Shown piece after piece: positions 4,960 through 58,600 of a stretch of 64,000 bases of DNA. The notes beneath the pieces were generated by a model. It ran no database searches and was not told the origin of the DNA. It was given only the letters and a program-made list of their open reading frames with translations. How positions within the stretch are numbered: the stretch's first letter is position 1; the number at the start of each line of letters is the position of its first letter. The stretch is from a virus, in IMG/VR virus record IMGVR_UViG_3300025168_000049, positions 1-64,000 of that record; one strand, given 5' to 3'. Made by a program: the position numbers and the translations under genes.

Positions 4960-5140
4960 CTTTTTTTGTTAAGTTAAATTTTTCTTTAATTTTATTTCGT
5001 GTACTTACTAGCCTAGAGCGCTTTGCTCTAGGGTGATCAAACATTTTATCATTCTCTGGTCTAATCACATCACGGTTATCCATTTTGTTAATTGTACCTG
5101 TAAGATTATTATAAATCTCTACGGCTTTTCTCTTGCCCAT
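4943..5140 (-). CDS. Small basic hypothetical protein
   Basis: ORF track; probable start MGKRK at 5140. Confidence 0.5.
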   Translation of the reverse strand: MGKRKAVEIYNNLTGTINKMDNRDVIRPENDKMFDHPRAKRSRLVSTRNKIKEKFNLTKKDGITN

Positions 5141-5288
5141 TGTCTTGTTTTTTATCAAAGTCTCTTAAGTTACGTAAAAACTTCTTATGGTTAATATTGC
5201 TATCTACGTGCTCTATAATCTGAGAGGATACATAAAGTCCTAACACAAATCCTACGGCACCTACAGTAATAATTGTTAATGTTATCAT
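5109..5288 (-). CDS. Small membrane protein (59 aa, not in ORF track)
   Basis: Manual translation MITLTIITVGAVGFVLGLYVSSQII...; fills the gap after dnaB; N-terminal hydrophobic helix. Confidence 0.55.
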   Translation of the reverse strand: MITLTIITVGAVGFVLGLYVSSQIIEHVDSNINHKKFLRNLRDFDKKQDNGQEKSRRDL

Positions 5289-5291
5289 ATC

Positions 5292-6227
5292 TTATTTATT
5301 TTTTCTTTCGTTAATTGTAAATGTAGACATTTCTGCTTCAAATGGTATCATACCAAGTAGTCCATCTCTGTTCTTTTCTACATGTATTGCTAACAGTCCC
5401 ATTGGATCTTCATCACAATATAACTCTGTGATTCCATATAGATCATTAGGTCGTTGTAGCATCATTACAACATGAGCATCCTGGCCAATACTATCGCCTC
5501 CAAATAAATCTGTTAGCAGTGGTTGGTACTGTGCTTTAGCACGGTGCTCTTGTTCTATGTTCCTATTAAGCTGAGAGATCAAAATGTTTATAGTGCCCAT
5601 CTTAGCTTGTAACCACATACATCCTTTAGATACATCATTAAGCTTCTGTAGTTCATGTTCTTTCTCACTTAATATAAGCCTAGAGTGATCAAATACATTT
5701 ATAATAGTATGGTCAGGTCGTTTATTAGTTACGTCTATATTAGATTTCTTAATAAACTCCATATCTCTAGGTACATTATTAAAATAGATAGGGTAATGAG
5801 CGTACTTAAGTACTTCTTTCTTAAACTTCTCATACTCTTGTCTTTCTAATTTATGCTCTACAGATAATAATTGACTCACTTCTTTATGAGTTCCTTTTGC
5901 ACCGGCTCTAAGTATCTGTTGATATCCTGGCATTTCAAAGCTCCAATATAATACTAGTAATTTCTTACCTTTATTGTTATCTAACAAGTCAAATATCATC
6001 TGATTGCTAAAAGCTGACTTACCTACGCCGGGCCTACCAGCTATTACATACATCTTACCAGGTTGTAATCCTCCTAATAAATTTTTATTTAATCTCTTCC
6101 ATTTAGTAGGATATACAGACCTTGTACCGTTCATTCCGTCTTGTACCTGATAAAGAGATGCACTAATAGCTTTATTAATACTTTTAAACCCTCTGTCTTT
6201 AAAGGGATCTTGTGATTCTATTTCCAT
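5292..6227 (-). CDS. dnaB: DnaB-like (SF4) replicative helicase
   Basis: AGRPGVGKS, SFEM, VFDH, ISQLNR, IGQDAHVV, EKNRDG; likely start MEIESQ (track extends to 6257). Confidence 0.9.
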   Translation of the reverse strand: MEIESQDPFKDRGFKSINKAISASLYQVQDGMNGTRSVYPTKWKRLNKNLLGGLQPGKMYVIAGRPGVGKSAFSNQMIFDLLDNNKGKKLLVLYWSFEMPGYQQILRAGAKGTHKEVSQLLSVEHKLERQEYEKFKKEVLKYAHYPIYFNNVPRDMEFIKKSNIDVTNKRPDHTIINVFDHSRLILSEKEHELQKLNDVSKGCMWLQAKMGTINILISQLNRNIEQEHRAKAQYQPLLTDLFGGDSIGQDAHVVMMLQRPNDLYGITELYCDEDPMGLLAIHVEKNRDGLLGMIPFEAEMSTFTINERKNK

Positions 6228-18374: not shown

Positions 18375-18644
18375 ATGGATTTTTTAGAAGACATCGAGAT
18401 GTATGATTTAGCTATGAGAAATGCATATGAATTTGTAACGAGAAAGAAAACAATAGATGATATCTATTATGAATTGGAAGCGGATAATATAGAAAATTAT
18501 CCTTTACCTTTTGATCCTATGGACCAGGGAAGTATAACTGGTGGAGTAGTTGATCTAATAATAGAATACTTTACATCTACTGAAGAATACGAAAAATGTG
18601 CAGACCTTATGAAAGTTAAAAATAGACTTGAGAAAGTTCAATAA
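18375..18644 (+). CDS. Hypothetical protein with UVR-like C-terminal motif
   Basis: EEYEKCA.L motif. Confidence 0.55.
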   Translation: MDFLEDIEMYDLAMRNAYEFVTRKKTIDDIYYELEADNIENYPLPFDPMDQGSITGGVVDLIIEYFTSTEEYEKCADLMKVKNRLEKVQ

Positions 18645-20598
18645 CATAGATAGAATACGCCCTGCTGCGGTGACATTCATTAATCATGGGTATTATACTG
18701 ATGCGCTTCCTGGTACGCGAGAGTATTTTGAATTTTGGGATGAGGAGAAAAAGAGATGTATGTATGGATATACTAAGGATGAATTACATGTAACTGGATT
18801 TCATTACTTTTATTTAAATTACTGTCCTATTGATAGGGCCATTGATGAAACCTTACCAGATGGAACAATACAATCTAAACGTGAGAGAACGTTTCCTGCT
18901 TTTTATGATGGAGATTGGCAATATTTTCAAGAAATAGATAAAGCTAGAGCAGCTAATAAACATATGATAGTCCTAAAAGCAAGACGTAAGGGATATTCTT
19001 ATAAAGCAGGATCTATGCTTGCACGTAACTATTTCTTTATAAAGAACTCTAAGAATTTTGTATTTGCTTCTTCAAAAGAATTCTTAATAGGAGATGGATT
19101 ACTTTCAAAAGCTTGGGAGTTTCTATCTTTTATAGATGATCATACAGCATGGGCTCAGCCACGATTAAGAGACAGAGAAATGAGTAAGATGTCTGGATAT
19201 AAAAAGAAAGTTAATGGTGTAGACATTGAAATGGGAATGAAATCTCAAATTATGGGAGTATCATTAAAAGATGCTCCAGATAAAGTAAGGGGTAAAGCAG
19301 GTGAATTGGTATTTTTTGAAGAGGCAGGATCTTTCCCAGGATTATTAAAAGCGTGGGAAGTAACAATGCCAACAATGAGACAAGGAGCAAAGACATTAGG
19401 ATTAATGGTAGCTTTTGGAACAGGTGGTACAGAAGGATCTGACTTTGAAGCTATGGAGGAAATATTTTATCAACCCGCTGCATACGATTGTATGGAATAT
19501 GAAAATGTGTGGGATGAAGGGGCTATGGGAAGTACATGTGGATATTTTATTCCTATACAAACTAATTTAGATGGATTTATAGATGATAATGGGAACTCAT
19601 TAGATCTAGATGCAGTTGAGTATGAAAAAGGAATGAGGGAAAAGAAAAAGGGTGCTGCGGATGCAAAATCATTAGACCAATATATAGCGGAGCATCCTTT
19701 CTCCCCTCAAGAAGCTACTTTACAAGTGACAGCTAATTTGTTTGATATAGCATCTCTGCAGGAACATTATAACAGATTGAAAGCTAATGATTTGCATTCT
19801 GTAGGGACTTATGGTAACTTATATTATGGGGCAAAAGGAGAAATAAAGTTTACAGTAGATGGAGATGCGAGACCTTTATTAAAATTCCCACATAGAAAAG
19901 ATGATCATATTAAAGGTAATGTTGTAGTGTATGAAGCTCCATATAAAAATAGAGAAATGCAAACTCCACATAATATGTATATAGTATGCCATGACCCCTA
20001 TGGACAAAATCAATCAGCAGATTCTACGTCGTTAGGTGCTGCATATGTAATTAAACGTATTAATAATATATCAAAACCAGATGATCTTATAGTAGCTTCT
20101 TATGTAGGAAGACCAGATACACAAGACGAGTATAACAGAAACTTATTTTTAATGGCTGATTACTTTAATGCTAAGATAGGATTTGAGAATGATAGGGGAG
20201 AGGTTATAGCGTACGCTAAAAGACATAGAAAGTTACATAGATTAGAAGAAGAGTTTGAAATGTTAGATAAAAAGGAATTACAATCCAGAACTGTTAGAAG
20301 ACAATATGGTATGCACATGACTGAGGCAAGAAAGCGTCAGGGAGAATTGTATATTAGAGATTGGTTAAATTCAGTTAGAAGAACTAATGAAGATGGTACT
20401 CAAACTTTAAACCTACATAAAATATATGATCCTGCATTAATAACGGAATTAATTAAATTTAATCACGCAGGTAACTTTGATCGTGTTATGGCGTTTATGA
20501 TAGGTATGTTTCATACGCGAGAGTTATATAACGCGGAAGTTAAAGAAATACTAGAAGATAACTCTGCTAATGATTGGTTTGAAAAAAATTATTATTAG
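18628..20598 (+). CDS. terL: Terminase large subunit
   Basis: KARRKGYS Walker A, FFEEAG Walker B, GTGG, HDPY nuclease motif, GNFDRVMA; directly upstream of portal. Confidence 0.92.
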   Translation: MRKFNNIDRIRPAAVTFINHGYYTDALPGTREYFEFWDEEKKRCMYGYTKDELHVTGFHYFYLNYCPIDRAIDETLPDGTIQSKRERTFPAFYDGDWQYFQEIDKARAANKHMIVLKARRKGYSYKAGSMLARNYFFIKNSKNFVFASSKEFLIGDGLLSKAWEFLSFIDDHTAWAQPRLRDREMSKMSGYKKKVNGVDIEMGMKSQIMGVSLKDAPDKVRGKAGELVFFEEAGSFPGLLKAWEVTMPTMRQGAKTLGLMVAFGTGGTEGSDFEAMEEIFYQPAAYDCMEYENVWDEGAMGSTCGYFIPIQTNLDGFIDDNGNSLDLDAVEYEKGMREKKKGAADAKSLDQYIAEHPFSPQEATLQVTANLFDIASLQEHYNRLKANDLHSVGTYGNLYYGAKGEIKFTVDGDARPLLKFPHRKDDHIKGNVVVYEAPYKNREMQTPHNMYIVCHDPYGQNQSADSTSLGAAYVIKRINNISKPDDLIVASYVGRPDTQDEYNRNLFLMADYFNAKIGFENDRGEVIAYAKRHRKLHRLEEEFEMLDKKELQSRTVRRQYGMHMTEARKRQGELYIRDWLNSVRRTNEDGTQTLNLHKIYDPALITELIKFNHAGNFDRVMAFMIGMFHTRELYNAEVKEILEDNSANDWFEKNYY

Positions 20599-20668
20599 TG
20601 TTATATTATAAAGGATAAATAGAAATATAGAGATAAAGTTGAATATTCAATAAAAATGCTTAATTTTG
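20597..20668 (+). promoter_or_regulatory. Putative late promoter of portal
   Basis: AGTGTTATATTATAA at 20597; TAATTTTG at 20661. Confidence 0.55.
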
Positions 20669-20675
20669 TAAAATT

Positions 20676-23051
20676 ATGGGGCACGAAATAAACAGTAGTT
20701 TACCTAGGCAGAAAATGCCTATAGCTAAAAAAAATAAACAGTGGAGAGAAGATTGTGTAGAAGCATACATTAATCTCTCTAACACTGGACACGCGTATTC
20801 CGCGAGAAAAGATAATCTAAAAAGACTTTATGATTTCTATAACGGTATAATTGATGAGGATGACTATAGATACGTTCTTAAGCCCTACGGCAAAGCTCGT
20901 AAAAATTTTCCATCAGAGATGCGAAACTACCCCATAATAAAACCTATAGTTGACCTCTTACTAGGAGAGAAAGCTAAGAGGCCTCTCAATTTTACTGTAA
21001 GTGTATTAAATGCAGATGCTGTAACCATAAAAGAAGAACAAAAAAACGAACAGTTATATAGAAGTTTACAACAGCAATTTGCTAACAGAGCAGCTGAAGC
21101 TGGTATAGATACAGGAATGGATCCTGCAGAAGTAGAAACCCCAGCATCAATAGAAGAATTATTTGAAACTAGTTATGTAGACAATCGTGCTATAATAGGA
21201 CAAAATTCTATGAATTATATAATGGCCGATCAAGAAGTTAAAGATAAATTTGATAAAGGGTGGTTCCATTTTTTAATATGTGGAGAAGTTTATACTCATA
21301 GAACTGTTAGATCATCAGAAACTTTTTATGAGATTTTAAATCCAGTGGATATAGATTACGATTTAGATCCAGATTTAGAATTTGTAGAAGATGGAGATTG
21401 GGCTTTAATTAGAAAATATGTACATGCTTCTACAGTAGTAGATCATTATTATGATGAATTATCCCAAGAAGAAATATTAGAACTAGAAGAGCCAAGACAT
21501 TCAGAAACAGATATAGGATTTTTATATCCTAATTCTAAAGACAGGCATTCAGGTACTTATAGAAATAGATTATTAGAAGTTATAAATGTATACTGGAAAT
21601 CTCGTAAAAGAATAGGATTTTTATCTTTTATAGATCCAGAAACTGGAGAACCTGTAGAAGAAGAAGTTCAAGATGGATTTAAAATGCCTCCTGAACTAAA
21701 AGAAATAAAAGCAAAAGTAGAATGGTTATGGGTTAATGAAGTATGGCAAGGAACAAGAATAGATGGAAGAATATATATAAATGTTCATCCAGTTGCTAAT
21801 CAACGATTGTCTATTGATAATCCATCCGTATGTAAGTTACCTATTAACGGTAGAAGATATTCTGATATAAATTCAGAGAATATTTCTTTGGTGTCTTTAG
21901 GTATTCCATATCAATTAAATTATAATATATACAAATATAGATTAGAACTAGCTATTGCAAAAAGTAAAGATATAATTGCTTCATTTGATATTAACATGAT
22001 CCCTAAAAAATGGGATATGGATAAATTCATGTATTTTGTAGAAGGTACTGGTATTGCGTGGGTAGATTATAATAAAGAAGGTATACAATTAAATCCACAA
22101 CATCAGTCTGTTATGGATATGTCTATTAAAACAATTGAGCAATATATAGCATTGTTAGAATCTATTATGCAGGAATGGGAAAAATTATCAGGTGTTAATA
22201 GACAACGACAAGGACAAGTAGGTGCATACGAGGGAAAAGCTACTTCTCAACAAGCTATTGTACAATCTTCTCATATTACAGAAGACTTATTCCGTAAGTT
22301 TAATAGATTAGAGCAAAGGGATTTACAAGCATTATTAGATTATTCAAAGGAAGCATGGTTAAACGGTAAAAAAACTTCATATGTAATGCCAGATGGTACT
22401 ATAGAATACTTAAGTGTAGATCCGTGGGAATATTCAGAATCTAATTATGGAATTTATTTATTAGATTCAGGAGAAGAGAAAGAAAAATTAGAGCAAATAA
22501 GAGCTCTTGGACAATCAATGGTACAAAATGGAGTACCAGCTTCTACTATTGCTGAGATGTTAGATGCACAAAGTTTCACACAGGTGAAGAAACACATCAA
22601 GGCTGCTGAGAAACAAATGCAAGAATTACAAGAAGCACAGTCACAAGCTCAGCAAGAACAAGCACAAGCTGCAATGAAGATGGAAGAGATGAAAATGGAG
22701 AATGATAATATGAACCAAGAGAAAGATAGAGAGACTGATATTAAAGTTGCTGAGATTGCAGCTGCAAGTAGAACTGCCACAGATAACTTTAATTTAGAAA
22801 AATCTTTGAAAGAATTAGATATAAAAGATAAAGAGGTTAATATAAAAGATAGGGAAGTTAATGAGAAAGTTAGAAGTAATAAGTCTGGAGAAGGGCAGAG
22901 TAAAACTGAAACTGATGCAAAACGTAAAGAAACTAAACAAACAGGAGCATTAAAAAATAGAGAGTTAGCACAAAAAGCTGAAGAAACTAAGCAGAAAGCT
23001 CAAGAAGCTAAAGCTAAGATCAGTGAGTCTAAGAAATCCAAAGATAAATAA
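20676..23051 (+). CDS. Portal protein
   Basis: 791 aa after terL; NYPII.P..DLL.GE, LSGVNRQRQG, coiled-coil C-terminus as in crAss-like portals. Confidence 0.88.
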   Translation: MGHEINSSLPRQKMPIAKKNKQWREDCVEAYINLSNTGHAYSARKDNLKRLYDFYNGIIDEDDYRYVLKPYGKARKNFPSEMRNYPIIKPIVDLLLGEKAKRPLNFTVSVLNADAVTIKEEQKNEQLYRSLQQQFANRAAEAGIDTGMDPAEVETPASIEELFETSYVDNRAIIGQNSMNYIMADQEVKDKFDKGWFHFLICGEVYTHRTVRSSETFYEILNPVDIDYDLDPDLEFVEDGDWALIRKYVHASTVVDHYYDELSQEEILELEEPRHSETDIGFLYPNSKDRHSGTYRNRLLEVINVYWKSRKRIGFLSFIDPETGEPVEEEVQDGFKMPPELKEIKAKVEWLWVNEVWQGTRIDGRIYINVHPVANQRLSIDNPSVCKLPINGRRYSDINSENISLVSLGIPYQLNYNIYKYRLELAIAKSKDIIASFDINMIPKKWDMDKFMYFVEGTGIAWVDYNKEGIQLNPQHQSVMDMSIKTIEQYIALLESIMQEWEKLSGVNRQRQGQVGAYEGKATSQQAIVQSSHITEDLFRKFNRLEQRDLQALLDYSKEAWLNGKKTSYVMPDGTIEYLSVDPWEYSESNYGIYLLDSGEEKEKLEQIRALGQSMVQNGVPASTIAEMLDAQSFTQVKKHIKAAEKQMQELQEAQSQAQQEQAQAAMKMEEMKMENDNMNQEKDRETDIKVAEIAAASRTATDNFNLEKSLKELDIKDKEVNIKDREVNEKVRSNKSGEGQSKTETDAKRKETKQTGALKNRELAQKAEETKQKAQEAKAKISESKKSKDK

Positions 23052-25780
23052 TGAATAGTGAAGGAGCTTTAAGTTCAGAAGAAGCATTAGCAATTATTAA
23101 GTCTTCAATGTCTGGAGAATTAGAAATTCCTGCGCACAAAGCTATAGAACAAACAGCTTTAAAACAACAGCAAGAATTAGTTGCGCAACAAGAAGAACAA
23201 GAACAGTCTCAACAAGGTCCAATGCATCAGATGCCTGATGGTAGCATGATGCCAGGCGAAACTCATGGTGAAGCCCCACCCCCAGCTTTAGGAAAACTAG
23301 TACCTACATATACGAAAACAGGAGATCTTGTTAATTCAGGGGATTCACTTACACAAGGATTTAGTAATGCAATTGGGACTCAGCGTGGTAATATAATTGG
23401 ACAACAAGGAGAATATGCTCACGGTGGTGAGCATGAAGCTCCAGAGTTAGATGATATTGATTCTATTACATATGAGGATGGAGGAATTTCACCACAAAAT
23501 CAAAAGACAGAGTCTGCTAAGATAGCACGTAATTATGTAAATGTTAAAGGACAGTTATATCCAAATGCAGTAGATGAAGATGGGTTAATAGAAGATAAAT
23601 CTAAATTTCCAGATGATAAGGCTTTTTCTATGTATAAGGAAGCTGTTTTAGAAACAGAAGGAGAAAGATTAACAGGATATTTACCTAATAATAAATTTTC
23701 AGGTGTAACTGTCGGCAGAGGTTTTGATATAGGACAGTTTAGTACAAGGCAGATTAAAACAATGTTTTCTGATGATAAGGTTTTAATGCACAAGTTGCTT
23801 CCATATGCAAATAAAAAGAAACCTGAACTAGACAAATCAAACATAAATGGTAAAAAACTAAAGATATCATCATCAGAATCTGAAAAAATAAATGAAACTT
23901 TATTTAATCAACAATGGTCTTCTATAAAAAGTTATACAAACGGTAAAGGAGCTACTGAAGATAATGTTAAAACATTAATGCAATTAAAACATTGGTCTGG
24001 AGCTTTAGGAAATACATCAGGAAATTTAGCTCCTAAAGGAGAAAATCATATTTGGAAAGAAATCCAAGATGGTGACTTTGATACACAAGAGTTATATAAT
24101 GCAGTTATGTTTACCCGTGAGGATTTAGGTGAAAAAACTAAAGAGAATGAATGGAAATATAATACATTAAAAAAACATCATACTAATTTAGGTAAACAAA
24201 TGAAAGAAGTGCATGGTGAAAATTGGGAAAGTGGATTAGCAGTAACACCGCCTCATCCAGGAGAGTTTCTGATGAATATGTATAAAATGCAATTAAAAAA
24301 TGGAGTATTAGATAGGCGAATAGAGCATAAATATAAAAGGTGGTTACATGAAGACTGGGATAAAGATGGTGATGGAATTCCTTTTAGTATAGACAAAAAT
24401 GATCATCAACATTTTGAAAGAAAATTTGCAGAAGGTGGGGTAAGAAAGTATCATAATGGAGGTGAAGGGCCAGGGCATCCTCATGAAGAGGAAGAAATAA
24501 AGCCTGACGGATATACAACTACCAAAAAGTATAATAGCGGCAGGGTTACAACACATTCAACTTTTAATGATGAAAGTAAAAGAAGTCAGGGATCCGGATA
24601 TGTTAGTGCAATACCGACAGATTCAGAAAATTATATATTAAATGCAGGAATGCTTCCTGAAGTAAATATAAAAGAAAAAGATCCTAGAAGTTGGGTAAAG
24701 AGAAACTACCAAAAGTATATAGCTCCAATAGGACATGGAGTATTAGATGTTGTAGGTATGATACCTGCAGCTGGAGAATTAGCTGATGGTATTAATGCAT
24801 TATGGTATACTGCAGAAGGTAATTATGAGGATGCAGCTTTGTCAAGTGCAGCTATGATTCCATTTGCAGGATGGGCAGCAACTGCAGGTAAATGGGGAAA
24901 GAATACTATTAGAGCCATGGATAAAGTAACACCTGGAGGAGGAGGAATGTATCAACAATTAAGATATTTACAAGACGTAAATCCTAAACTCGCTGGAGAG
25001 TTAGGAATTAAAAATAAGAAGCAGATAAAAAAGATGCTTAAGAATGACCCTGCTGCGGCACAAAAAATAATTGATGATGCAAATGCAGGAAAAGTATTTG
25101 ATGGTGGTAAAAAGACAAAGTATGTAGAACCTACAGTTGATGACTTTGGTAAAAAAGTTAATACTGATGACTTGCGTAGTACGGGTGATGATATTATAGA
25201 TAATAGACTACTTGATACGCAAATTGATCCTGACTTAACATTTAGAAAATCTGCTTTTGATAGAACACATCCTAACAGAGGTGGACATACATTTAGCGAT
25301 ATAGCAGGAGAATATACTTGGTTAGATAACGCATCTAAAATTGATAATCATGTTATTGCACCATTTAATCCAAAGTTTAATAAAGCTGGAGATATGACTT
25401 CTTTTGATTTACAGAAACTTGATGATTATGTGCCTTTTAGTTCACATAAAATGGAATTCCCTAATCTAAATAATACCGGTTTTAAAAATGATTTAACTCA
25501 TACAATGAAAAATTTACAAAATAACGGGTTCCATCATATGGATATGCATGGTGGTAATATACTAGTAAAATCAGATAATTTTGGTAAGATACTAGATTAT
25601 AAAATTATTGATCCAGTAGGATACACTCATGACTTCCAAAAGTCAGAAATGTTTTTAAGGAATAATCCAGAATTTCAAGATTGGGATGGAATACTTAAGA
25701 ATAGAAGTAGAGTTAATGATGATATATTTAGAATCCAAAATGAGATGAAACATGGTGGACTAAGAAGAAAACGAAAATAA
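23051..25780 (+). CDS. Modular putative virion effector: pesticin-type muramidase + PT-TG + protein-kinase-like domain
   Basis: EG...GYLP....SGVTVGRGFDIGQ; LDVVGMIP..GE.ADGINALWY..EG; HMDMHGGNILV...IIDP. Confidence 0.7.
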   Translation: MNSEGALSSEEALAIIKSSMSGELEIPAHKAIEQTALKQQQELVAQQEEQEQSQQGPMHQMPDGSMMPGETHGEAPPPALGKLVPTYTKTGDLVNSGDSLTQGFSNAIGTQRGNIIGQQGEYAHGGEHEAPELDDIDSITYEDGGISPQNQKTESAKIARNYVNVKGQLYPNAVDEDGLIEDKSKFPDDKAFSMYKEAVLETEGERLTGYLPNNKFSGVTVGRGFDIGQFSTRQIKTMFSDDKVLMHKLLPYANKKKPELDKSNINGKKLKISSSESEKINETLFNQQWSSIKSYTNGKGATEDNVKTLMQLKHWSGALGNTSGNLAPKGENHIWKEIQDGDFDTQELYNAVMFTREDLGEKTKENEWKYNTLKKHHTNLGKQMKEVHGENWESGLAVTPPHPGEFLMNMYKMQLKNGVLDRRIEHKYKRWLHEDWDKDGDGIPFSIDKNDHQHFERKFAEGGVRKYHNGGEGPGHPHEEEEIKPDGYTTTKKYNSGRVTTHSTFNDESKRSQGSGYVSAIPTDSENYILNAGMLPEVNIKEKDPRSWVKRNYQKYIAPIGHGVLDVVGMIPAAGELADGINALWYTAEGNYEDAALSSAAMIPFAGWAATAGKWGKNTIRAMDKVTPGGGGMYQQLRYLQDVNPKLAGELGIKNKKQIKKMLKNDPAAAQKIIDDANAGKVFDGGKKTKYVEPTVDDFGKKVNTDDLRSTGDDIIDNRLLDTQIDPDLTFRKSAFDRTHPNRGGHTFSDIAGEYTWLDNASKIDNHVIAPFNPKFNKAGDMTSFDLQKLDDYVPFSSHKMEFPNLNNTGFKNDLTHTMKNLQNNGFHHMDMHGGNILVKSDNFGKILDYKIIDPVGYTHDFQKSEMFLRNNPEFQDWDGILKNRSRVNDDIFRIQNEMKHGGLRRKRK

Positions 25781-25851
25781 GTGTTATATAATAATAGAAA
25801 CCTTAAAACAACAGAAGAGTATAAAAAATATGAATATATTTCGTACTTTTG
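25780..25851 (+). promoter_or_regulatory. Putative late promoter of the scaffold/capsid operon
   Basis: AGTGTTATATAATAA at 25780; TACTTTTG at 25844. Confidence 0.55.
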
Positions 25852-25879
25852 TAACCTAAACCAATAAATATATATAGAC

Positions 25880-27001
25880 ATGAATGAACCAAATGAAAAA
25901 ATCCAGCTGGATGACATCACCTTTGATGATGTTATTGGCGGTGACGGAGTCGAGACTGTAGACACTCCCAAAGAAGAATTAGAAGTAGTAGAAAATGAAC
26001 TTGAGGAATTAGAATTAGAAGATCCTAAAGACGAAGATCTTGAGGATGATGATGAGTACGAGGATGAAGATGAAGATGACAATGATGAATATGAAGATGA
26101 GGAAGAAGATGAAGATGAATATGAATCAGAGTATGACGATAGTGATGACCCTGCTGAGCAACCAACTGTTATTAATGAAATTTTAGACTCATTAGGATAT
26201 GATGCTAATGATTCTTACGATGATACTGCAGAAGGTTTAACTAAGATGACTAAAGATATAGCATCTAAAATGGCAGACGATAGAATTGATGATGTGTTAG
26301 CATCTTTTCCTTTAGTAAAACAACATTTAGAATATGTTTTACATGGAGGAGAATCTAAGGAGTTTATGTCAGCACATGATCCTGCAATAGATTATGGTGC
26401 ATTTACAGTAGGAGAAGAAGATTCTAGAAGTCAACGAATGATTTTATCTAATTACTTAAAGTTAAAAGGGCATGATAAAGAATTTTCTGACGAACTATTA
26501 GAAGATTATGAAGATAGTGGTAAATTATATCAGAAATCTTTAGCAGCGCAAAAGGCTTTAACAAGCTATCAAGAAAAAGAAAGAGAGCAAATGATTACGA
26601 ATCAACGAGCTAGTCAAGAAAAAAGCAACCAAAGCCAAAGAGAATTCTGGAATGGTATTGCAGATAAGATAGATGATTCTGATGAATTTGCTGGAGTTAG
26701 GTTAGCAGAGAGTGAGAAAAATGGTTTTTTTAATTACCTTTCTCAACCTGTTGATAAGAATGGAAGTACACAAAGAGATGTAGACCACCGTGATGCTGAT
26801 ATGGATGTTAAATTAGCTATTGATTATCTAATGTATAAAGGATTTGATTTAGAGAGTTTAGTAAACACAAGAGCTAAAACGGCAGGTGCTAGATCCCTGA
26901 GAGATAAGATATCTAGAAGTGAGGCTAGTGTTAAAAGTGCACGTAAAGCTTCACGAAGAAACAAGAAGTTCGATATAGATGATTTAGATCTTAGTATTTA
27001 A
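25880..27001 (+). CDS. Acidic capsid assembly/scaffold-like protein
   Basis: Very D/E-rich N-terminus, helical remainder, immediately upstream of major capsid gene. Confidence 0.65.
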   Translation: MNEPNEKIQLDDITFDDVIGGDGVETVDTPKEELEVVENELEELELEDPKDEDLEDDDEYEDEDEDDNDEYEDEEEDEDEYESEYDDSDDPAEQPTVINEILDSLGYDANDSYDDTAEGLTKMTKDIASKMADDRIDDVLASFPLVKQHLEYVLHGGESKEFMSAHDPAIDYGAFTVGEEDSRSQRMILSNYLKLKGHDKEFSDELLEDYEDSGKLYQKSLAAQKALTSYQEKEREQMITNQRASQEKSNQSQREFWNGIADKIDDSDEFAGVRLAESEKNGFFNYLSQPVDKNGSTQRDVDHRDADMDVKLAIDYLMYKGFDLESLVNTRAKTAGARSLRDKISRSEASVKSARKASRRNKKFDIDDLDLSI

Positions 27002-27085
27002 GAAGGCAATTTATACTTGCAATAGTATTTTTACTATAATTACCCCCTGAACTGGGAGATAGGGGCCCATTAAAATTTTAATGAA

Positions 27086-28534
27086 ATGGCAATAAGCGGA
27101 ACTAACATAAGCGTTCAGAAAGCCTACTATAATGACAGTCAAATGACTGACATGAATAGTTTGGCTAATGCACTCTTATCTAAACCAACCGAGTTGTCAC
27201 CTATAATCACGCACCTTTCAGGAAAAGATGATAAACGTTTTCCTCTTTCGTTCTTAACAGAGGGGGTAGGAAACGTAAAATCTATTGATAGATTGGAGTA
27301 TGAATATAGAGTGAAAACTCACACTTTAAAAACAAGACCTGTAGCAGTAACAAATAGTGGTATTACTGCAAACACAACTTTTGGAGGAACATTTGAACTG
27401 GTATTTCCAGACAAATGGTTTATCTTCCCATACGTATTGATTAATGCGGCGGGAGAACAGGCAAGAATCATGGCAGAACCAGTACAATCTGCTGGAGGAC
27501 AATGGAAATACTCTATGCAATTAGTAGATCCATCACCAACATCTTCACTTTCTACTGGATTTACAAATGGAGATCTTTGGGCTCAATTATATGCACCTGT
27601 AGGAGTAGACTTCTCTAGAGGGAATGCAGCTAACTGGGAAACTCCAGGGAAAGTAAGAAACAAAATTGGTACTGTTAGAAAATCTTACCACATGTCTGGG
27701 CATGCTAAAGACTTTGTGGCAGAATTTGCTCTACCTACTAAAGGTGGAAAAAGTACTAAACTTTGGATGGACTACGAAGAATATAATCACATGTTAAACT
27801 TCAAAGAAGAGTGTGAAATGTTTTACTGGTACGGACAAAAAACTTACGATTCAAACGGTCAAAACGCTATGCGTGATGAAAATGGCCAACCTGTAATCGT
27901 AGGTCCTGGTCTTTTGGAACAAATCATCAATACGGATACATATTCTACGATGACTGAAACAAAGATCAAAAATATTATTGGCGATTTATTCTATGGAATG
28001 ACTGATGCTAATAAAAAGCAAGTTACCCTATATACGGGAACTGGAGGAGCGCGTGAATTTGATGAAGCTCTTAAAAATCACTTTTCTGGAACTGCAGGAG
28101 GATGGAAAGTTGGTGGAGAGAATAGATTCATCACAGGATCTGGAAGATCATTAGGTATGAGTGGTTACTTTACTTCGTATGAGCATGTAGATGGCCATAC
28201 TGTAAATGTAGTTAAATTACCTTTATTTGATCACGGTCCAGTAGCACAAGCTCGTACAAAGCACCCTGTTACAGGTTATTCACTTGAGTCTTACAGAATG
28301 GTATTTGTTGATCAATCAAATTATGATGGTCAGGCAAACCTACAAATGATCTCTAAGAAAGGTCGTGAGATGATGAGATGGTGTGTAGCTGGTTCAGTAG
28401 TACCTAGAGGATTTGATTCATCTTCTTCTAGAGCGTCTGATGTTGACGGTGCTAGCGTTCACATGTTAAAAACTGCAGGTATTGTATTAAGAAGATTTGA
28501 TACTTCACTTGACATTACATGTATCGCTGAATAA
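27086..28534 (+). CDS. Major capsid protein (crAss-type HK97 fold)
   Basis: 482 aa, synteny, G.GLLEQI and TG.GG..EF motifs typical of crAss-like capsid proteins; strong hairpin downstream. Confidence 0.85.
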   Translation: MAISGTNISVQKAYYNDSQMTDMNSLANALLSKPTELSPIITHLSGKDDKRFPLSFLTEGVGNVKSIDRLEYEYRVKTHTLKTRPVAVTNSGITANTTFGGTFELVFPDKWFIFPYVLINAAGEQARIMAEPVQSAGGQWKYSMQLVDPSPTSSLSTGFTNGDLWAQLYAPVGVDFSRGNAANWETPGKVRNKIGTVRKSYHMSGHAKDFVAEFALPTKGGKSTKLWMDYEEYNHMLNFKEECEMFYWYGQKTYDSNGQNAMRDENGQPVIVGPGLLEQIINTDTYSTMTETKIKNIIGDLFYGMTDANKKQVTLYTGTGGAREFDEALKNHFSGTAGGWKVGGENRFITGSGRSLGMSGYFTSYEHVDGHTVNVVKLPLFDHGPVAQARTKHPVTGYSLESYRMVFVDQSNYDGQANLQMISKKGREMMRWCVAGSVVPRGFDSSSSRASDVDGASVHMLKTAGIVLRRFDTSLDITCIAE

Positions 28535-28570
28535 AGGAAGGCATTAATTTGCGTCTATATATATTGGTTT

Positions 28571-28614
28571 TTAATTAAGGTTGTGGGGGAGCAATCCCTC
28601 ACGGCTTTGATTAA
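28571..28614 (+). terminator. Long GCAA-tetraloop hairpin after capsid gene (terminator or stabiliser)
   Basis: ~20-bp stem with G-U pairs on plus strand; no clear U-tract. Confidence 0.6.
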
Positions 28615-28675
28615 ATAATTATACGGAGAGTTATACTTTACATCCACTTAATTTAAACTTTAAAAGTACTATATT

Positions 28676-29485
28676 ATGAGTAAGAAAATTTTTTTAAGAA
28701 GGAAAGAGGTAATGAACCATTTACCTAAAGAAGTACGCGCTGAAGCAACAGTAAAATTAAGCAGTGTGTATGTAAATCGCCAACCATTAAAAGCTTTTGA
28801 TCCTAAAGAGGAAGCAAAATATTTAAATGGTATTTTAGATGTTGCACCCGATCATCAAGATTGGCCTAAACATTCTAAAACATACTGGGCAGAAATGTCT
28901 ATCCCTGTAGGTTTTACAGGAGTAGAACTTGAAATTGGTACTGATGATGATGATAACCCATTGCAGATTATAGATTTTATAAAATATAGGTTTGCAATTA
29001 AACATCCTCATGTAGCACTAACTAAAGAAGAAGCAGATGGAAACTCAATGAAACGTTTTTACATCTGGGATACTAAAAGAGATGATGTCGTTAAAAATAA
29101 GGACATACAATTAAAGAAAGATGCCTCTAGAGTATTTATTAAGTTGTCTGATGATTTAAAGTCAATGCGAAGAGTATTACGTATTATGTCTGATGTAAAT
29201 CCGGACCTTTTAAGTAGAGAACAAGTAGAGAATGCTTTATATTCTTACATGGAGAAGACTCCAGCAAAATTTATAAAGATTGCTACAGACTCAAACTTAG
29301 GAGTAAAAGCAGAAATAGAAGAAATGGTTTCTGCAGGAGTGTTACGAAAGATAGGTAATCAAATTATTTTCATTGATGAAGTAATTGGAGAAACTATGGA
29401 GAATGCAGTAGTTTATTTAAAAAACAAAAAGAACTCAGGAACATTAACTATTCTTAGAGCTAAATTGAAGGAAATAGCGATTTAA
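28676..29485 (+). CDS. crAss-like conserved protein downstream of capsid gene
   Basis: Synteny; intact 269-aa ORF. Confidence 0.65.
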   Translation: MSKKIFLRRKEVMNHLPKEVRAEATVKLSSVYVNRQPLKAFDPKEEAKYLNGILDVAPDHQDWPKHSKTYWAEMSIPVGFTGVELEIGTDDDDNPLQIIDFIKYRFAIKHPHVALTKEEADGNSMKRFYIWDTKRDDVVKNKDIQLKKDASRVFIKLSDDLKSMRRVLRIMSDVNPDLLSREQVENALYSYMEKTPAKFIKIATDSNLGVKAEIEEMVSAGVLRKIGNQIIFIDEVIGETMENAVVYLKNKKNSGTLTILRAKLKEIAI

Positions 29486-46427: not shown

Positions 46428-47213
46428 ATGGCAAAAGATGAATTTTACGGGAAAGGCTCTAAGCGCATAAGTGGCGACTTTTTGGAACCTAGTACCCCTG
46501 TTTTGTTTGAGGATGGCGGCGCCTCTGAAGATGAGACACGTAAGGAAATGCGAAGACGACAAAGAGAGGAGCGCAAAACCGCAAGGAAAAAAAGAAGATC
46601 TACTAGGAAAACAAGACGTCTAACAAAGAAAATAAACAGACGTAAGGAAAAAACTAAAAAGATTGAAGGTAAGTTAGAAACTCATACTGAGAAGACTCTA
46701 ACAAAGAAAAAAGAGTATGCTCCAACTACAGAAGGAGATAAAAATACTCCACCTAAATCGGCTACAGAAACACCAGATGTTAAAAAGGATAAAAAGAATT
46801 CTAAAAGTATAGATAATATGTCTTTTAGTGAGGCTTACAGAACTCAAAGAGATGCTAATAAAAAAGCAGGTATAAAGCATTACGGAGATGATTCAGGGCA
46901 TTTTACTTGGAGAGGTAAGGAATATAGTACGGAGTCAAAATCTGAGCAAGATAAAAGAAAAGGAAAAACTAAGAAAAAAGTAGTTAAAAAGAAAGAAGAG
47001 ACACCGGTAGTAAAAGAAACAACTCCTAAGAAGAAACAAACTGTAAATCCAAAGCATGATCAAGACGGTAATGGTGTTCCAGATTTAGTTCAAAAACCTA
47101 AGACTCATGATGCAGATAACGACGGAATTCCAGATTTGATCCAAAGACGTGAGACAACAAAGATCAAGAAGAAGAAAGGTGGAATAAAGTACAAAAGAGG
47201 AGGAAGAAGATAG
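46428..47213 (+). CDS. Lys/Arg-rich putative internal virion protein
   Basis: Basic composition, SFSEAY...FTWRGKEYST, two DxDxxG.PD motifs, terminal GG motifs. Confidence 0.55.
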   Translation: MAKDEFYGKGSKRISGDFLEPSTPVLFEDGGASEDETRKEMRRRQREERKTARKKRRSTRKTRRLTKKINRRKEKTKKIEGKLETHTEKTLTKKKEYAPTTEGDKNTPPKSATETPDVKKDKKNSKSIDNMSFSEAYRTQRDANKKAGIKHYGDDSGHFTWRGKEYSTESKSEQDKRKGKTKKKVVKKKEETPVVKETTPKKKQTVNPKHDQDGNGVPDLVQKPKTHDADNDGIPDLIQRRETTKIKKKKGGIKYKRGGRR

Positions 47214-54259: not shown

Positions 54260-55630
54260 ATGACAAAAATAAAAAAATTAAAGACCGCTGTTGCGTATAA
54301 AAGTAAGTATGCCCTAGGAGGCAAGTTAGAGAAACCAAAAATGAAAAAGAGCAAACGTAAGTTTGTGGCAGGTGGATCTCAATACGATCAAAACACTATT
54401 AGTGCTTTTCAGAACCCTAACTATACAGGGAATATAGTAGCTCAAGGTACTCAAGAATCTGCAGATGCGGCTTCAGAACATTTTGATTCAGAGGCTGAAA
54501 AACTAAAAACTTCATCAGAGACAATGGTTAACGAGATGAAAAATGAAGATGAGCAAACTAAACAAAGACTTATACAAGAGGATGCAGCCAACAAACAAAA
54601 ACAAAATGCAGTTGAAAGCACTGCACAAACGGCTGCACAAACTATAACTGAAGGATATAAAAAGTTTGCTCCTAACAGTGCTACTGCAAAAGAAACAAAA
54701 GGAGATGGTATTGGTGGACTAGTTGGTTCTATTGGACAGGCTAGAAATCAATGGAAAGCTATAGGAGATGCTAAAAAGGCTGCTAAATTTGCAAAAGGTT
54801 TTAATGAAACTAAAACTGCCTTTGATGTTGGACAAAGATTATCAATGGGAGAGGATGCATATAAGCTGTCTCAAAGCATGAAGAATGTATCAAATATGAA
54901 AACTACTCTAGATCAAACTAAAGTAGGAATGAATATGTTTGATAAAGGTAGTAAAGGTTTAGATATGTTAAATAAAGGTAAGGATGCTGGTGATGTATTT
55001 AAAAAAGGAACAGAACTCGCTAGTACAATGGATAAAACAACGGGACTTTTAAAACTAGGAGAAAAAACACAAAAATTAAGCACGATGAGTAAAGTTGGTA
55101 CAGCTGCTAAAACAGTAGGGGCTGGTGTCAAATCTTTTGCTACTTCGGCTTCAGGGCTAGGTCTTATAGCAAATTATGCAGGAAAAGGAATAAGCAAGTT
55201 ATCTGATGATGGGGATCCTACTAAATCTAACTTTGGAGAATATGCTGGAGCTGCTTTATCTACTGCAGGATCTTGGGCAGGGACAGGAGCAATGATTGGA
55301 TCAGTAATACCTGGTATTGGAAATGCTGTTGGAGGAGCTGTTGGGGCAGTTGCAGGAGCTCTCTATGGTGTAGGAAAAACATTTTTTGGTACTAGAAAAG
55401 CTAAACGTGCTAAGGCAAAAGCAGATCAGCAAAGAGCTGAGAAAGTGGGTGCGTATAATGAAAAATTAAAAGGAAGATTTGGACATGCTGCACAATCAGC
55501 TAGAGCTATGGAGATTAAATCAAAAACAACCTCTGGACAAGATTTAGGGTGGGATACAACAAGATCTAGATATGGAGGAATTAGAAAAGAATATGGGGGG
55601 CAACGACAAATACCAGCATACGCTGCATAA
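54260..55630 (+). CDS. Internal virion (ejection/cargo) protein with glycine zipper
   Basis: GA.IGS.IPGIG.AVG.AVG.V.G hydrophobic Gly zipper; follows tail genes. Confidence 0.65.
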   Translation: MTKIKKLKTAVAYKSKYALGGKLEKPKMKKSKRKFVAGGSQYDQNTISAFQNPNYTGNIVAQGTQESADAASEHFDSEAEKLKTSSETMVNEMKNEDEQTKQRLIQEDAANKQKQNAVESTAQTAAQTITEGYKKFAPNSATAKETKGDGIGGLVGSIGQARNQWKAIGDAKKAAKFAKGFNETKTAFDVGQRLSMGEDAYKLSQSMKNVSNMKTTLDQTKVGMNMFDKGSKGLDMLNKGKDAGDVFKKGTELASTMDKTTGLLKLGEKTQKLSTMSKVGTAAKTVGAGVKSFATSASGLGLIANYAGKGISKLSDDGDPTKSNFGEYAGAALSTAGSWAGTGAMIGSVIPGIGNAVGGAVGAVAGALYGVGKTFFGTRKAKRAKAKADQQRAEKVGAYNEKLKGRFGHAAQSARAMEIKSKTTSGQDLGWDTTRSRYGGIRKEYGGQRQIPAYAA

Positions 55631-55642
55631 AATACTACGACT

Positions 55643-58600
55643 ATGAATAGAAGATTTATAAATAAACTAAGAAATAAATATGCTACAGGAGGAGAACTAA
55701 TGACTAACTCTATGGATCCAGCTCCAATGGGACAACTAGAAGAATCTAGCACAGTTCCTTATGGGTCAGTACCTACTTATGAAGCACAAGGAAATAATGT
55801 TCCTAAACCACCATCTACAACAATGGCACCAGTTACGGGTGGAACAGATCCTAAAGTGTTAAAAGCAGAGAGAGATAAGTTAGCTCTTATGGATGAAGCA
55901 ACACTTCGTGCATATTATACAGAGATGTATACTAATCAAGTAACACCTGTAATACCTTTTGGTCAAACTAGATTTAGTAATGATCCAGGATATGGCCAAG
56001 GGAGTACTAGATTTAACTATTCCCACACACAAGATAAGAGTGCATTTAATAATATTTATACTTTGACAGATTATGATCCGACAAATGAAGGAGAGCAAGA
56101 TGTTAATGTAAGGAATATAGATGCTGCAAATTATATATATGGTAATACAACTGATGGGTTAATAGCTACTACTACTAAATTTGAGGAAGACAGAACGACA
56201 CAGAACGCTGCTAATGCTTTATTAGACGGAGATGAAAAAGAAGCTGACCGTATTACTACTAATCAGGTTAACAGGACTATAATTAATGATCTAATAAATC
56301 AGAAAGGCTCGTATTACGAGGAAGGTTGGACTATAGGAGATGGAGGTAAGCCTGTACCACCTGTAAATCAAGGTCAGTTTAACAGAGACCTTATGCGTGA
56401 AGAAGCTGAATCTTGGGAGAAAGAAAAAAATCGTCTTATAGAGGCAGGTATAATGGGAGACGGATCACAGCCTGTAGTTATAGAAGACGATGCTAAGTTT
56501 AATGTAGCGGCACTACCAATGGTTGTAGCATCAGGTGTATTTGCCGCAGGGCAGTGGGGTCTGAATCCTGCAGCTGACGCCCTGTTTTTAGAATCTTTAG
56601 TTTTGGCAGGAATATCAACTATAACTTATAAAGAGTTGCAGGGGATGTATAAAAATTATCAAGAAGGTGCGACAATGCAGAGGACTATAGATGCTCATGG
56701 TAAACAAATGGAAATTGATTTTGGGGCATCAGCTTCTACTGCTACTTCTGCAGCAGGAAGTCATCCTAATGGACCTGAATATGACCCAAAGAAAGATCCG
56801 GATAAAAGTAGAGCTGCTAAATTTGCTGAAGCTGTAAAAAAGTGGGGAAAGAATGCTGGTAAGCTAGTTTGGAATAAATATACTAGGAAATTTGGGATTT
56901 ATGTTATAGTTGGGGGTACAGGAAGGTTTATATATGAAGTAATTAAACATGGCGGAATAGGTAATACACCTGATGGTCAAAATAGAAATGATAAAAAGAA
57001 AGAGAAAACTCTAGATAATGATGAATGGATAGCAAATCCAGCGGACCCATCTGGATGGACATTAATGAATCCTGCAACAGGTGATATATACGATAAACGT
57101 ACTGGGAACCATTTCACTAAAGATGGAGAACCTATAAAGAATAGAGGACAGAACTATGAATTTGGCGGGTCTAGAAATACTCTAGATAGAATGCGTCAAT
57201 ACTCAAGAGGAGGCGAGGCTTTACCAGGAGGTATGATGGAATCAATACCAGGTTCTGATGCTGTAAAATTTAATGGTCAAACTCATGAAGAAGGAGGAAT
57301 AGAATTAGATTCTAGAACAGAAGTAGAAGACGGGGAAACTATGGATAAAGTTAATATGAGTAAGGGAGGTCCTTCAGACTATTTCTTTTCTAAAAAATTA
57401 GGATTCGCTGATAAGCATGAGAGACTACTAGCTAATGGAGGTAGTCAAACTGATATCAATTACTTAGCTAAAATGCAAGAAAAAGCTGCTGGGAGAAATC
57501 CAAGTAAAATTGCCGCAGAATATGGGGGAGTTAGAAAATTTGAAGAGGGAGGAGCAAATAGAAAAACAGATAGACAATATGCATACGGAGAAGATTATAC
57601 AGAGAATGTAGGAGGAGCACATGGAGAGGCAGGATACACAGGACTGGGATCTGACGGATCTTATACTCCAACTGATCCAGGAGAAGAAGGATACGCTAAT
57701 ACACAATCTTCAATAGGAAAAAAAGGAAATAACTATTGGGGAGATAAACATATTATGTCTGATGAAGGACGTAAAGATTTCTACAATAGAAATAAAAATA
57801 TTTTAAATGGTATGGATATTAATAGTTGGGAAGATTACGACCCAGCTAAACATGCAGGAGATTTCCAAAAAGCATTTAACACAGATTTAAAAGAACGTTA
57901 TAATAAAGACGAGAACTTACGAAACAGTTTAAAAAGTAGAGGGATTAATAGTGTTGAGGACTTTACACAACAGGCTGGATTTCATAATAAAGGTCATAAA
58001 TCTAAACGATTAGATAATGCTCATGGAGAATACACATGGAGTAGAACCTCTGCATATAATGAGCCAGAAGATAAAGAAATAATCCCACCAACAGACGACG
58101 GAGGAGGGGACGAGGAAATTACTACAACAGATTTAAAGGTTCAAAATCAAAAAAAAGGCTTTAATTTGTTAGGGGCCGCACAATTAATACCTGCAGCTAT
58201 GGCATTTATGGATAAACCTGATTACATGGAATCTCCTGATTTAGTTGCTCCTGGTATTGTTGTTCCTGAACGAATATCTAAAACACATTTAGAAAGAGTA
58301 AATTATAATAATCAAAGAGATAAAGAAGATAGAAACTACCAGGGACTAAGACAAGATATCAATACAAGTGGTATAGGAGGAGGTAGTGCGATGTCTAACA
58401 GATTAGCGGCATATGCAATGTCAGAAGCAAACCAAAGAAAAATTGATGCTGATGAATCTAATGTAAATGTACAAATTGGGAATCAAGAAGGTACTATGGA
58501 CCAACAAAGAAAAGGAGAAAATGCTAGTAACATGTTATCAGCTAGTACTACTAATGCTAGTAACTACTTAGATGCAGACAAAACTAATGCTAAGAATGCT

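Follow-up and report, generated by a model that had tools for sequence, protein, structure and literature searches.

What kind of protein is encoded by a phage gene that starts on the stop codon of the portal gene, joins a lysozyme, a pre-toxin module and a kinase in one reading frame, and is followed by no immunity gene? The question is raised by positions 23051..25780 (+ strand) of the first 64,000 nucleotides of the IMG/VR virus record IMGVR_UViG_3300025168_000049, a stretch to which we refer as the window. The gene encodes P0001, a modular protein of 909 aa and a predicted multi-effector (polyvalent) protein, which an earlier note, made from the letters alone, had described as a capsid-packaged, injected effector with swappable modules. 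The open reading frame (ORF) is real, and the motifs quoted in that note are found where it had placed them. The interpretation given there finds partial support: its outline holds, and its assignment of one module to PT-TG does not. Our best explanation, to which we give a probability of about 0.6, is that P0001 is a packaged and injected polyvalent multi-effector with recombining modules, being the local version of a hypervariable, clade-specific virion protein.

The modules of P0001

P0001 opens with an N-terminal leader (residues 1-126, positions 23051..23428, + strand), which consists of a conserved helix of about 30 aa, a Q/P-rich linker, and the first YxxGG motif (Y122, G125, G126). A tandem form of the linker motif, FAEGGVRKYHNGG, occupies residues 459-471 (positions 24425..24463, + strand), and two homologues, P0010 and P0011, start aligning exactly at this motif. 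The protein ends in a C-terminal GG motif with a basic tail, MKHGGLRRKRK (positions 25745..25777, + strand), and similar GG-plus-basic tails end most of the proteins encoded at the same place in related phages, hereafter called slot proteins. The three modules named in the earlier note, a muramidase, a pre-toxin module, and a kinase, were recovered as modules of those kinds, and their identities are secure.

The pesticin/T4-lysozyme-like muramidase core (residues 201-294, positions 23651..23932, + strand) lies in a motif-bounded segment, residues 146-463. It matches the Pfam family Pesticin (PF16754) with 45.5 bits, the cut-off being 25.8 (E 1e-11, profile positions 9-107 of 156), and phrog_24780 matches the same stretch (E 1.2e-9). 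By this profile match, the module belongs to the PF16754 family, and it is predicted to act as a muramidase. The conserved stretches are EGERLTGYLP (residues 203-212, nt 23657-23686) and SGVTVGRGFDIGQ (residues 217-229, nt 23699-23737). The candidate catalytic residues E203, T220, and D226 follow each other in that order with a Thr-to-Asp spacing of 6, and they may correspond to pesticin E178/T201/D207 and to E11/T26 of T4 lysozyme. A word-based search with the lysozyme region gave no close relatives, and no sequence match was found in the PDB. The search for PF16754 in 251 Bacteroidota genomes gave no match and is uninformative, as the control matched nowhere either.

The conserved pre-toxin cassette covers residues 510-680 (positions 24578..25090, + strand) and travels as a unit in phage relatives, where it is followed by varied C-termini. 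Its core is a module of about 70 aa (residues 557-627, nt 24719-24931, + strand), which includes LDVVGMIPAAGELADGINALWYTAEG (residues 565-590, nt 24743-24820). With residues 458-909 as the query, an exhaustive HMMER search found 2687 representatives (E≤1e-3), which are 86 to 3099 residues long; in nearly all of them, the match is confined to residues ~557-627 and has 45-65% identity. The domain company of the module was read from 120 scanned carriers. These bear trafficking parts (PT-HINT in 7, Tox-PAAR-like in 5, Hcp in 3, WXG100 in 3, and also RHS and PAAR) and toxin domains (GH-E, Ntox28/30/33, Tox-ART-HYD1, EndoU, WHH, LHH, and non-specific nucleases), and the module is found in at least seven phyla, among them Bacteroidota, Actinomycetota, Chloroflexota, Bacillota, Pseudomonadota, Verrucomicrobiota, and Planctomycetota. 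Since the carriers bear the hallmarks of polymorphic toxins, the stretch of about 70 aa is, as judged from its sequence relatives, a real and widespread pre-toxin module, separate from PT-TG and with the same architectural role.

The label "PT-TG-like" in the earlier note thus stands as far as a pre-toxin module known from bacterial toxins is concerned, but not as membership in the Pfam family PT-TG (PF14449). At E≤10, that profile matched neither the excised region nor the six-frame translation of the genome, and in five bacterial genomes, it hit other proteins but not the module loci. The alignment of 146 copies of the module with 14 PT-TG segments from Bacilli genomes (hhalign) reached a probability of 17% (E 1.4e-3, 58 columns), the register being plausible. 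In a language-model feature search, residues 545-640 of P0001 fall near a PT-TG cluster (score 0.93, rank 4), and the two modules may thus be distantly related. PT-TG is described as a short helical/loop module between WXG/LXG, RHS, or PAAR parts and C-terminal toxins (Zhang et al. 2011/2012; PMC13483458), a setting like the one seen here, and both modules open with an LD-h-h-P-x-x-G-like stretch. The conserved residues of PT-TG are Gly, Asp, Arg, and TG, unlike those of the P0001 module, which are L, D, G, P, G, E, A, D, N...A, L, S...P, and G...K, with no conserved Arg.

In the AlphaFold 2 (AF2) model, the helical bundle after the core (residues 628-682) is predicted with a local distance difference test score (pLDDT) of 87-96 and the core itself with 46-73. 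The two most hydrophobic 19-mers of P0001 lie in the core and have Kyte-Doolittle values of 1.35 and 1.15, below the usual transmembrane level. The same combination of pre-toxin cassette and kinase is found in the metagenomic proteins P0006, P0007, and P0012, and P0015 has the cassette alone. All four start with M-N-T-Y-K-x-K-Y-Q-x-G-G, placing the motif at residues 8-12, like the proteins at the cargo position behind the muzzle gene that are described below; this different start suggests a second kind of carrier.

The C-terminal domain (residues 713-871, positions 25187..25663, + strand) is, by its predicted structure, a minimal protein-kinase-like fold. The AF2 model, built from an alignment of 47 sequences, has a pLDDT of 85-97 over model residues 256-414, with about residues 727-857 of P0001 in this range. 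The top 50 Foldseek matches in the PDB are all kinases, the viral matches (BFVD) are dominated by kinases, and the top 50 matches of the VIA all-against-all structure search are all kinase-like, with Z scores of 7.7-10.3 (BRAF 10.3, Rio1 10.2, Ark1 9.3, HopBF1 8.2, NleH1 7.7). The earlier note had proposed a fold check for each module; the kinase fold came out of it in AF2, Foldseek, and VIA, and the lysozyme model was unusable.

The catalytic residues expected of a kinase are present. The strand-3 lysine is K733, the helix-C glutamate is E754, the catalytic loop HMDMHGGN (residues 829-836, nt 25535-25558) aligns with HRDLAARN of CSK, and the metal-binding aspartate is D854 within IIDP (residues 852-855, nt 25604-25615). 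K733, E754, H828-x-D830...N836, and D854 are kept in nearly all 11 aligned homologues, the exceptions occurring only in P0065. Only about 55 residues follow D854 and most of the C-lobe is missing, which corresponds to a "minimal kinase" state; stand-alone relatives of the domain are P0023 (230 aa) and P0025 (345 aa). Rio1/Rio2, Bud32, Ark1, HopBF1, and NleH1 likewise have small kinase cores (about 160-250 residues) in which the C-lobe is reduced, and such minimal or atypical kinases align to the P0001 domain with Z 7.7-10.2 over 107-139 residues, at an identity of only 10-18%. Unlike them, the P0001 kinase has a conserved RTHPxRGG loop between strand 3 and helix C.

A variable slot beside the portal gene

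We fetched 80 IMG/VR loci (portals 63-70% identical), 50 of which keep both flanks of the slot, that is, the portal gene and the scaffold-like gene. The gap between these genes is filled in 50/50 loci, by one gene in 47 and by two ORFs in 3, and the main slot genes encode 328-1553 aa. Pfam domains were scanned in 46 slot proteins, and segments, architectures, and motifs were counted in 48. The leader is the only part common to nearly all slot proteins of the relatives (module family 0, in 44/48), and its first YxxGG is nearly invariant among them. Most loci share the leader alone with P0001, the pre-toxin module occurs in a few, and the cassette-plus-kinase combination is common only to L047.

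Cutting the 48 proteins at the motifs yields 135 segments, which group into 33 families and form 37 distinct architectures. Even where portals are 99-100% identical, the slot proteins differ in 20-39% of their content, and in one pair with 93% identical portals, they share nothing at ≥60% identity. The comparison of the locus across relatives, which the earlier note had asked for, thus clearly does not find an invariant locus and favours the swapping of modules that it had supposed. The Pfam domains in the 46 slot proteins are DUF192 (in 21), SLT (6), PG_binding_1 (3), and ART-PolyVal (1). The last one (PF18760, E 3e-14), the ADP-ribosyltransferase which defines polyvalent proteins, is found in the slot protein of one relative. 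PHROG 342, annotated as "internal virion protein with endolysin domain", is matched by the slot proteins of five relatives and not by P0001. A MuF domain (PF04233/PF06152) was found neither in P0001 (Pfam, E≤0.1) nor in the 46 slot proteins (E≤1e-3), in agreement with the earlier note, to which none was evident in P0001.

The absence of an immunity gene was borne out as well. The 100-nt gap 3' of the P0001 gene contains no gene and is followed by the scaffold-like gene, and no immunity-sized ORF appears in the slots of the relatives. Three - strand ORFs (23533-23844, 24344-24556, and 25675-26082) were weighed as candidates for hidden immunity genes and then left aside, because the late block is strictly one-directional and the strand skew is strong. 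The 135-aa ORF at 25675-26082 (-) covers the end of the P0001 gene and the start of the scaffold-like gene and is, given the one-directional block, probably spurious.

Further observations concern the slots of individual relatives. DUF192 (PF02643), found in 21/46 slot proteins, sits between the N-terminal helix, which it follows directly, and the first YxxGG; the genome of the window itself has none, and a literature search gave no functional lead. In L024 and L025, the slot is split into two ORFs of 929 and 533 aa, the second of which opens with a basic stretch of the ...RKPRMY type, the kind found at the end of the L067 slot protein just after its last GG motif. L005 has an extra ORF of 180 aa (4981-5523) between the portal gene and the slot gene.

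The borders between the modules are marked by the short motif [YF]xxGG. The 48 slot proteins contain 120 copies, compared with 24.1 +/- 4.6 in shuffles, the sequences being related and the counts not independent. The motif is commonly followed by a hydrophobic and then a basic residue and often occurs in tandem, as GG-h-[RK]-K-[YF]-x-x-GG. In BLAST comparisons between slot proteins, 43% of the segment ends lie ≤10 aa from a motif, compared with 7% at random. This genome has three copies of the tandem form, with 0.014 expected from shuffles. The three sites are in P0001, at the C-terminus of a very basic 261-aa protein (46428..47213, + strand), which ends in GGIKYKRGG, and in a protein of 1131 aa encoded two genes after the muzzle gene.

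This 1131-aa protein (55643-59038, + strand) and the product of the gene before it (54260-55630, + strand) occupy the position of the crAss001 cargo genes gp45/gp46, and both have [YF]xxGG near the N-terminus. The motif is absent from the portal, scaffold-like, major capsid, and muzzle proteins. In crAss001, gp45 has three copies, and the portal, scaffold, muzzle, and gp46 proteins have none. In phi14:2 (L197), g070 has two copies and g069 one, and both genes adjoin the muzzle gene. The gp45 protein is a cargo protein seen in crAss001 virions by mass spectrometry and cryo-EM (PMC10172136), and g069/g070 were found in phi14:2 virions by proteomics. The shared motif is, at the level of sequence, the best link of P0001 to the cargo class, and it is an indirect one.

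A tentative extension, which we hold to be well short of even odds, is that [YF]xxGG and its tandem form are a crassvirus-wide cargo signature, being either a site of maturation cleavage or a signal for packaging or ejection, and that the portal slot would encode a plug-and-play cargo polyprotein; the motif may also be no more than a hinge. If so, motif-bounded modules, even whole pre-toxin-plus-effector cassettes from bacterial polymorphic toxins, could be inserted and delivered into the host, and the motif would allow injected proteins to be recognised from their sequence throughout Crassvirales.

The phage and its late genes

The source record comprises 86,774 bp with direct terminal repeats, and the window is its first 64 kb. 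The phage, a marine one, is by its gene content a crAss-like phage (crassvirus), since the large terminase subunit (TerL), the portal, the Crass_capsid major capsid protein (MCP), the ring 1, ring 2, and ring 3/4 proteins, and the muzzle proteins were all found. TerL is encoded at 18628-20598 (phrog_6681, E 1e-130) and the portal at 20676..23051 (+ strand; phrog_6547, E 8.7e-128). The TAA stop codon of the portal gene overlaps the ATG of the P0001 gene in TAATG, in agreement with the MuF-like position that the earlier note had described. Downstream of the P0001 gene lie an acidic, scaffold-like protein of 373 aa (25880..27001, + strand) and the MCP (27086..28534, + strand; Pfam Crass_capsid, E 5e-81), and farther along the genome are the profile matches to the crAss ring 1, ring 2, ring 3/4, and muzzle proteins.

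The neighbours named in the earlier note are therefore right in the portal upstream and in a 373-aa gene before the MCP gene downstream, but "scaffold" is a name given by position, size, and composition only, and we call the product scaffold-like. Its gene precedes the MCP gene as crAss001 gp31 and phi14:2 g092 do, and no sequence similarity to these two was found. A terminator scan of 20000-29000, the only region for which the terminator list was used, found no site on the + strand, and the consensus promoter scan performed no better than on shuffles and was set aside.

The only full match to the stretch among sequencing sets is a marine metagenome, which may be its source. The nearest deposited phages have a portal identity of only ~30%, and the clade is therefore one without a cultured member in the collections searched. 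Against deposited phages, tblastn with P0001, megablast with 20000-29000, and tblastn with the leader and DUF192 of a relative gave no match, and IMG/VR scans with P0001, P0007, and the kinase alignment returned either no match or L047 alone.

The exact P0001 protein is recorded on two contigs, the longer one being 303,891 bp, compared with the virus record of 86,774 bp with terminal repeats; the 303,891-bp contig may represent a concatemer, an assembly error, or a larger replicon. The late + strand ORFs (15112-61704 in the window, 61708-80312 in the genome) also encode a Cpn10/GroES-like protein, a 2OG-Fe(II) oxygenase, a Metallophos_2 phosphoesterase, a Laminin_G_3 domain protein, and a holin with three transmembrane segments.

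Proposed function of P0001 and comparison with known systems

In the mechanism that we infer, P0001 would be made together with the portal from the late operon, and its conserved N-terminal leader would probably mediate its uptake into the procapsid. At infection, it would leave the virion, as crassvirus cargo proteins do, and its pesticin-type lysozyme would cut peptidoglycan during entry. With its two hydrophobic helices, rich in Gly/Ala, and its helical bundle, the pre-toxin cassette may present the domain that follows it or help to transfer it. In this phage, that domain is the minimal kinase, which would phosphorylate a host target early in infection. Recombination at the short [YF]xxGG linkers would create new combinations of modules.

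Several results weigh against this explanation. A recognised glycosidase domain is present in only 7/46 slot proteins (SLT in 6, Pesticin in 1), and wall-cutting is therefore not what every slot protein does; for the lysozyme of P0001, which has no usable model (single-sequence AF2, pLDDT 38.7) and no close relatives, the catalytic residues are read from the sequence only. Upstream of K733, the kinase has no glycine-rich GxGxxG loop, and its resemblance to the aminoglycoside kinase APH, the lipopolysaccharide kinase WaaP, and the RNA kinase Ark1 is as strong as that to protein kinases, so that its substrate may be a small molecule or RNA as well as a protein. No detectable homology connects P0001 to known crassvirus cargo proteins, the link consisting of the short motif and synteny, and no RNA runs containing the stretch were found.

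The location itself is also ambiguous. The slot is empty in phi14:2 (L196, 13568-17172) and holds head-fibre, tailspike, and lysis genes in crAss001 (L082, 1644-18271), and position alone is therefore no proof of cargo. For the same reason, the portal-scaffold junction is, on gene order, a general insertion point in Crassvirales, with the polyvalent gene being specific to the marine clade.

A refinement of the explanation, which we regard as doubtful, treats P0001 as a polyprotein. A protease would cut at [YF]xxGG during head maturation and free the leader, the lysozyme, and the pre-toxin-kinase unit, the leader being released as T4 capsid-targeting sequences are and the pieces being packaged or ejected separately. 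GG-type sites are used by adenain, by pS273R of African swine fever virus, and by bacteriocin leader peptidases, and internal head proteins are processed in phiKZ and T4. The motifs lie at module borders, often in tandem, and 8-21 residues from the N-terminus of the post-muzzle proteins, gp45, and P0006/P0007/P0012/P0015, where cleavage would remove a short propeptide. The split slot of L024/L025, in which the second gene starts with the L067-type basic stretch, points in the same direction. Cleavage is harder to reconcile with the 33 late proteins of the genome, which contain no protease family (Pfam, E≤1e-3), with the absence from this genome of the DUF192 that is common in the slot proteins of relatives, and with motifs 5-10 residues from a C-terminus, which would free only tiny peptides. 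The structural paper on crAss001 makes no mention of proteolysis or cleavage (PMC10172136).

Less probable still, and in our view unlikely, is a structural role, in which P0001 is a portal- or tail-attached lysin analogous to T7 gp16 or a tail lysin, its helices build a trans-envelope channel, and the kinase-like domain is a binding or degenerate module rather than an injected enzyme. In its favour, "lytic tail protein" and "internal virion protein with endolysin domain" are PHROGs that relatives match, the pre-toxin module contains the two segments of highest hydrophobicity in P0001, and a channel-forming role has been proposed for crAss001 gp45 (PMC10172136). The hydrophobicity of these segments does not reach what is usual for transmembrane helices, the module content of the slot is too variable for a fixed structural part, and the near-complete conservation of the kinase K, E, HxD..N, and D, from which P0065 departs, argues for an active enzyme.

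We consider it very improbable that P0001 is an unpackaged late weapon, freed at lysis and acting on neighbours as a true polymorphic toxin, with the lysozyme acting as pesticin does and the pre-toxin module carrying the kinase into competitors. The pre-toxin module elsewhere belongs to secreted bacterial toxins, pesticin is an imported bacteriocin (Pfam family description), and an immunity gene would be needless since the producer cell dies anyway. Pfam searches found no bacteriocin-type receptor-binding or translocation domain in P0001, however, and its gene is translationally coupled to the portal gene within the head-assembly block. The conserved part is the leader common to slot proteins and not a targeting domain, and [YF]xxGG is shared with cargo proteins.

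The preferred reading of P0001 as a packaged and injected multi-effector bears on crassviruses in general, which are among the most abundant phages known and whose injected content besides DNA and RNA polymerase is largely uncharted. This marine crassvirus clade keeps a dedicated, fast-changing effector slot beside the portal, and among its modules, wall hydrolases, an ADP-ribosyltransferase, and a minimal kinase occur beside cassettes that bacterial polymorphic toxins also have. If injected, these modules would form a natural library of early-acting enzymes for host takeover or counter-defence. Phage polyvalent proteins and bacterial polymorphic toxins are linked here through an unnamed module of about 70 aa with thousands of relatives, and [YF]xxGG may serve as a simple mark of cargo proteins. 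This motif and the pre-toxin module that bacterial toxins also carry are what most deserves further attention.

Among known systems, T7 gp16-type internal virion proteins are ejected, as P0001 would be, and carry a peptidoglycan hydrolase. Theirs is a lytic transglycosylase domain of the SLT type, whereas that of P0001 is of the pesticin/T4-lysozyme type, and P0001, unlike them, carries a kinase. A functional precedent for a phage kinase effector is T7 gp0.7. The crAss001 proteins gp45/gp46 are large proteins that capsid and tail hold and that are ejected before the DNA (Bayfield et al. 2023, PMC10172136). Two of the three [YF]xxGG copies in gp45 flank resolved segments, and its N-terminal copy is like those in the post-muzzle proteins of this genome. 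The gp45/gp46 genes follow the muzzle gene, whereas the P0001 gene adjoins the portal gene, and no enzymatic domains are reported in gp45/gp46.

The genes of MuF toxins directly follow the portal gene, as that of P0001 does, and their products combine a conserved N-terminal part with variable C-terminal effectors, again as in P0001, and are presumed to be located in the head (Jamet et al. 2017, PMC5576092). P0001 differs in having no MuF domain and several effector modules rather than one. Its phage is a crAss-like podovirus, whereas those with MuF toxins are temperate, and 89% of the MuF toxin genes have a small downstream ORF (PMC5576092), which P0001 lacks. P0001 thus resembles MuF toxins only in position and logic.

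The closest parallel is found in the polyvalent proteins, which are phage or plasmid polypeptides with 2-15 effector domains, encoded in phages beside portal or terminase genes; their packaging is presumed, and a role in breaching the wall at entry has been put forward for their lysozymes (Iyer et al. 2017, PMC5512222). P0001 shares with them several effector domains, a lysozyme, a kinase with a lost or truncated C-lobe, and a location beside virion and packaging genes. Their cassette-like recombinational variability is also seen at this slot, where one relative carries ART-PolyVal. On domain content and gene position, as read from sequence, P0001 fits the polyvalent-protein class. The kinase clade described in that work lacks the C-terminal subdomain, is found mainly in phages of Bacteroidetes/Verrucomicrobia, and includes stand-alone copies (PMC5512222). 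It is said to have a signature Glu/Gln and an insert between the catalytic His and Asp, whereas P0001 reads H-M-D without one, so the P0001 kinase may represent another clade.

The anchors of polyvalent proteins are MuF, zincin-like metallopeptidase, or RNA polymerase domains, whereas that of P0001 is an N-terminal helix of ~30 aa with a linker. The text of PMC5512222 contains no mention of crAss, and a literature search gave no paper, in the collection searched, linking Crassvirales with polyvalent proteins or polymorphic toxins. As multi-domain injected polyvalent proteins have already been described (PMC5512222), the novelty of P0001 is less than first claimed. P0001 departs from the polyvalent proteins described there in its setting in a crassvirus genome, the short leader as an anchor, the embedded bacterial pre-toxin cassette, and the module borders marked by [YF]xxGG.

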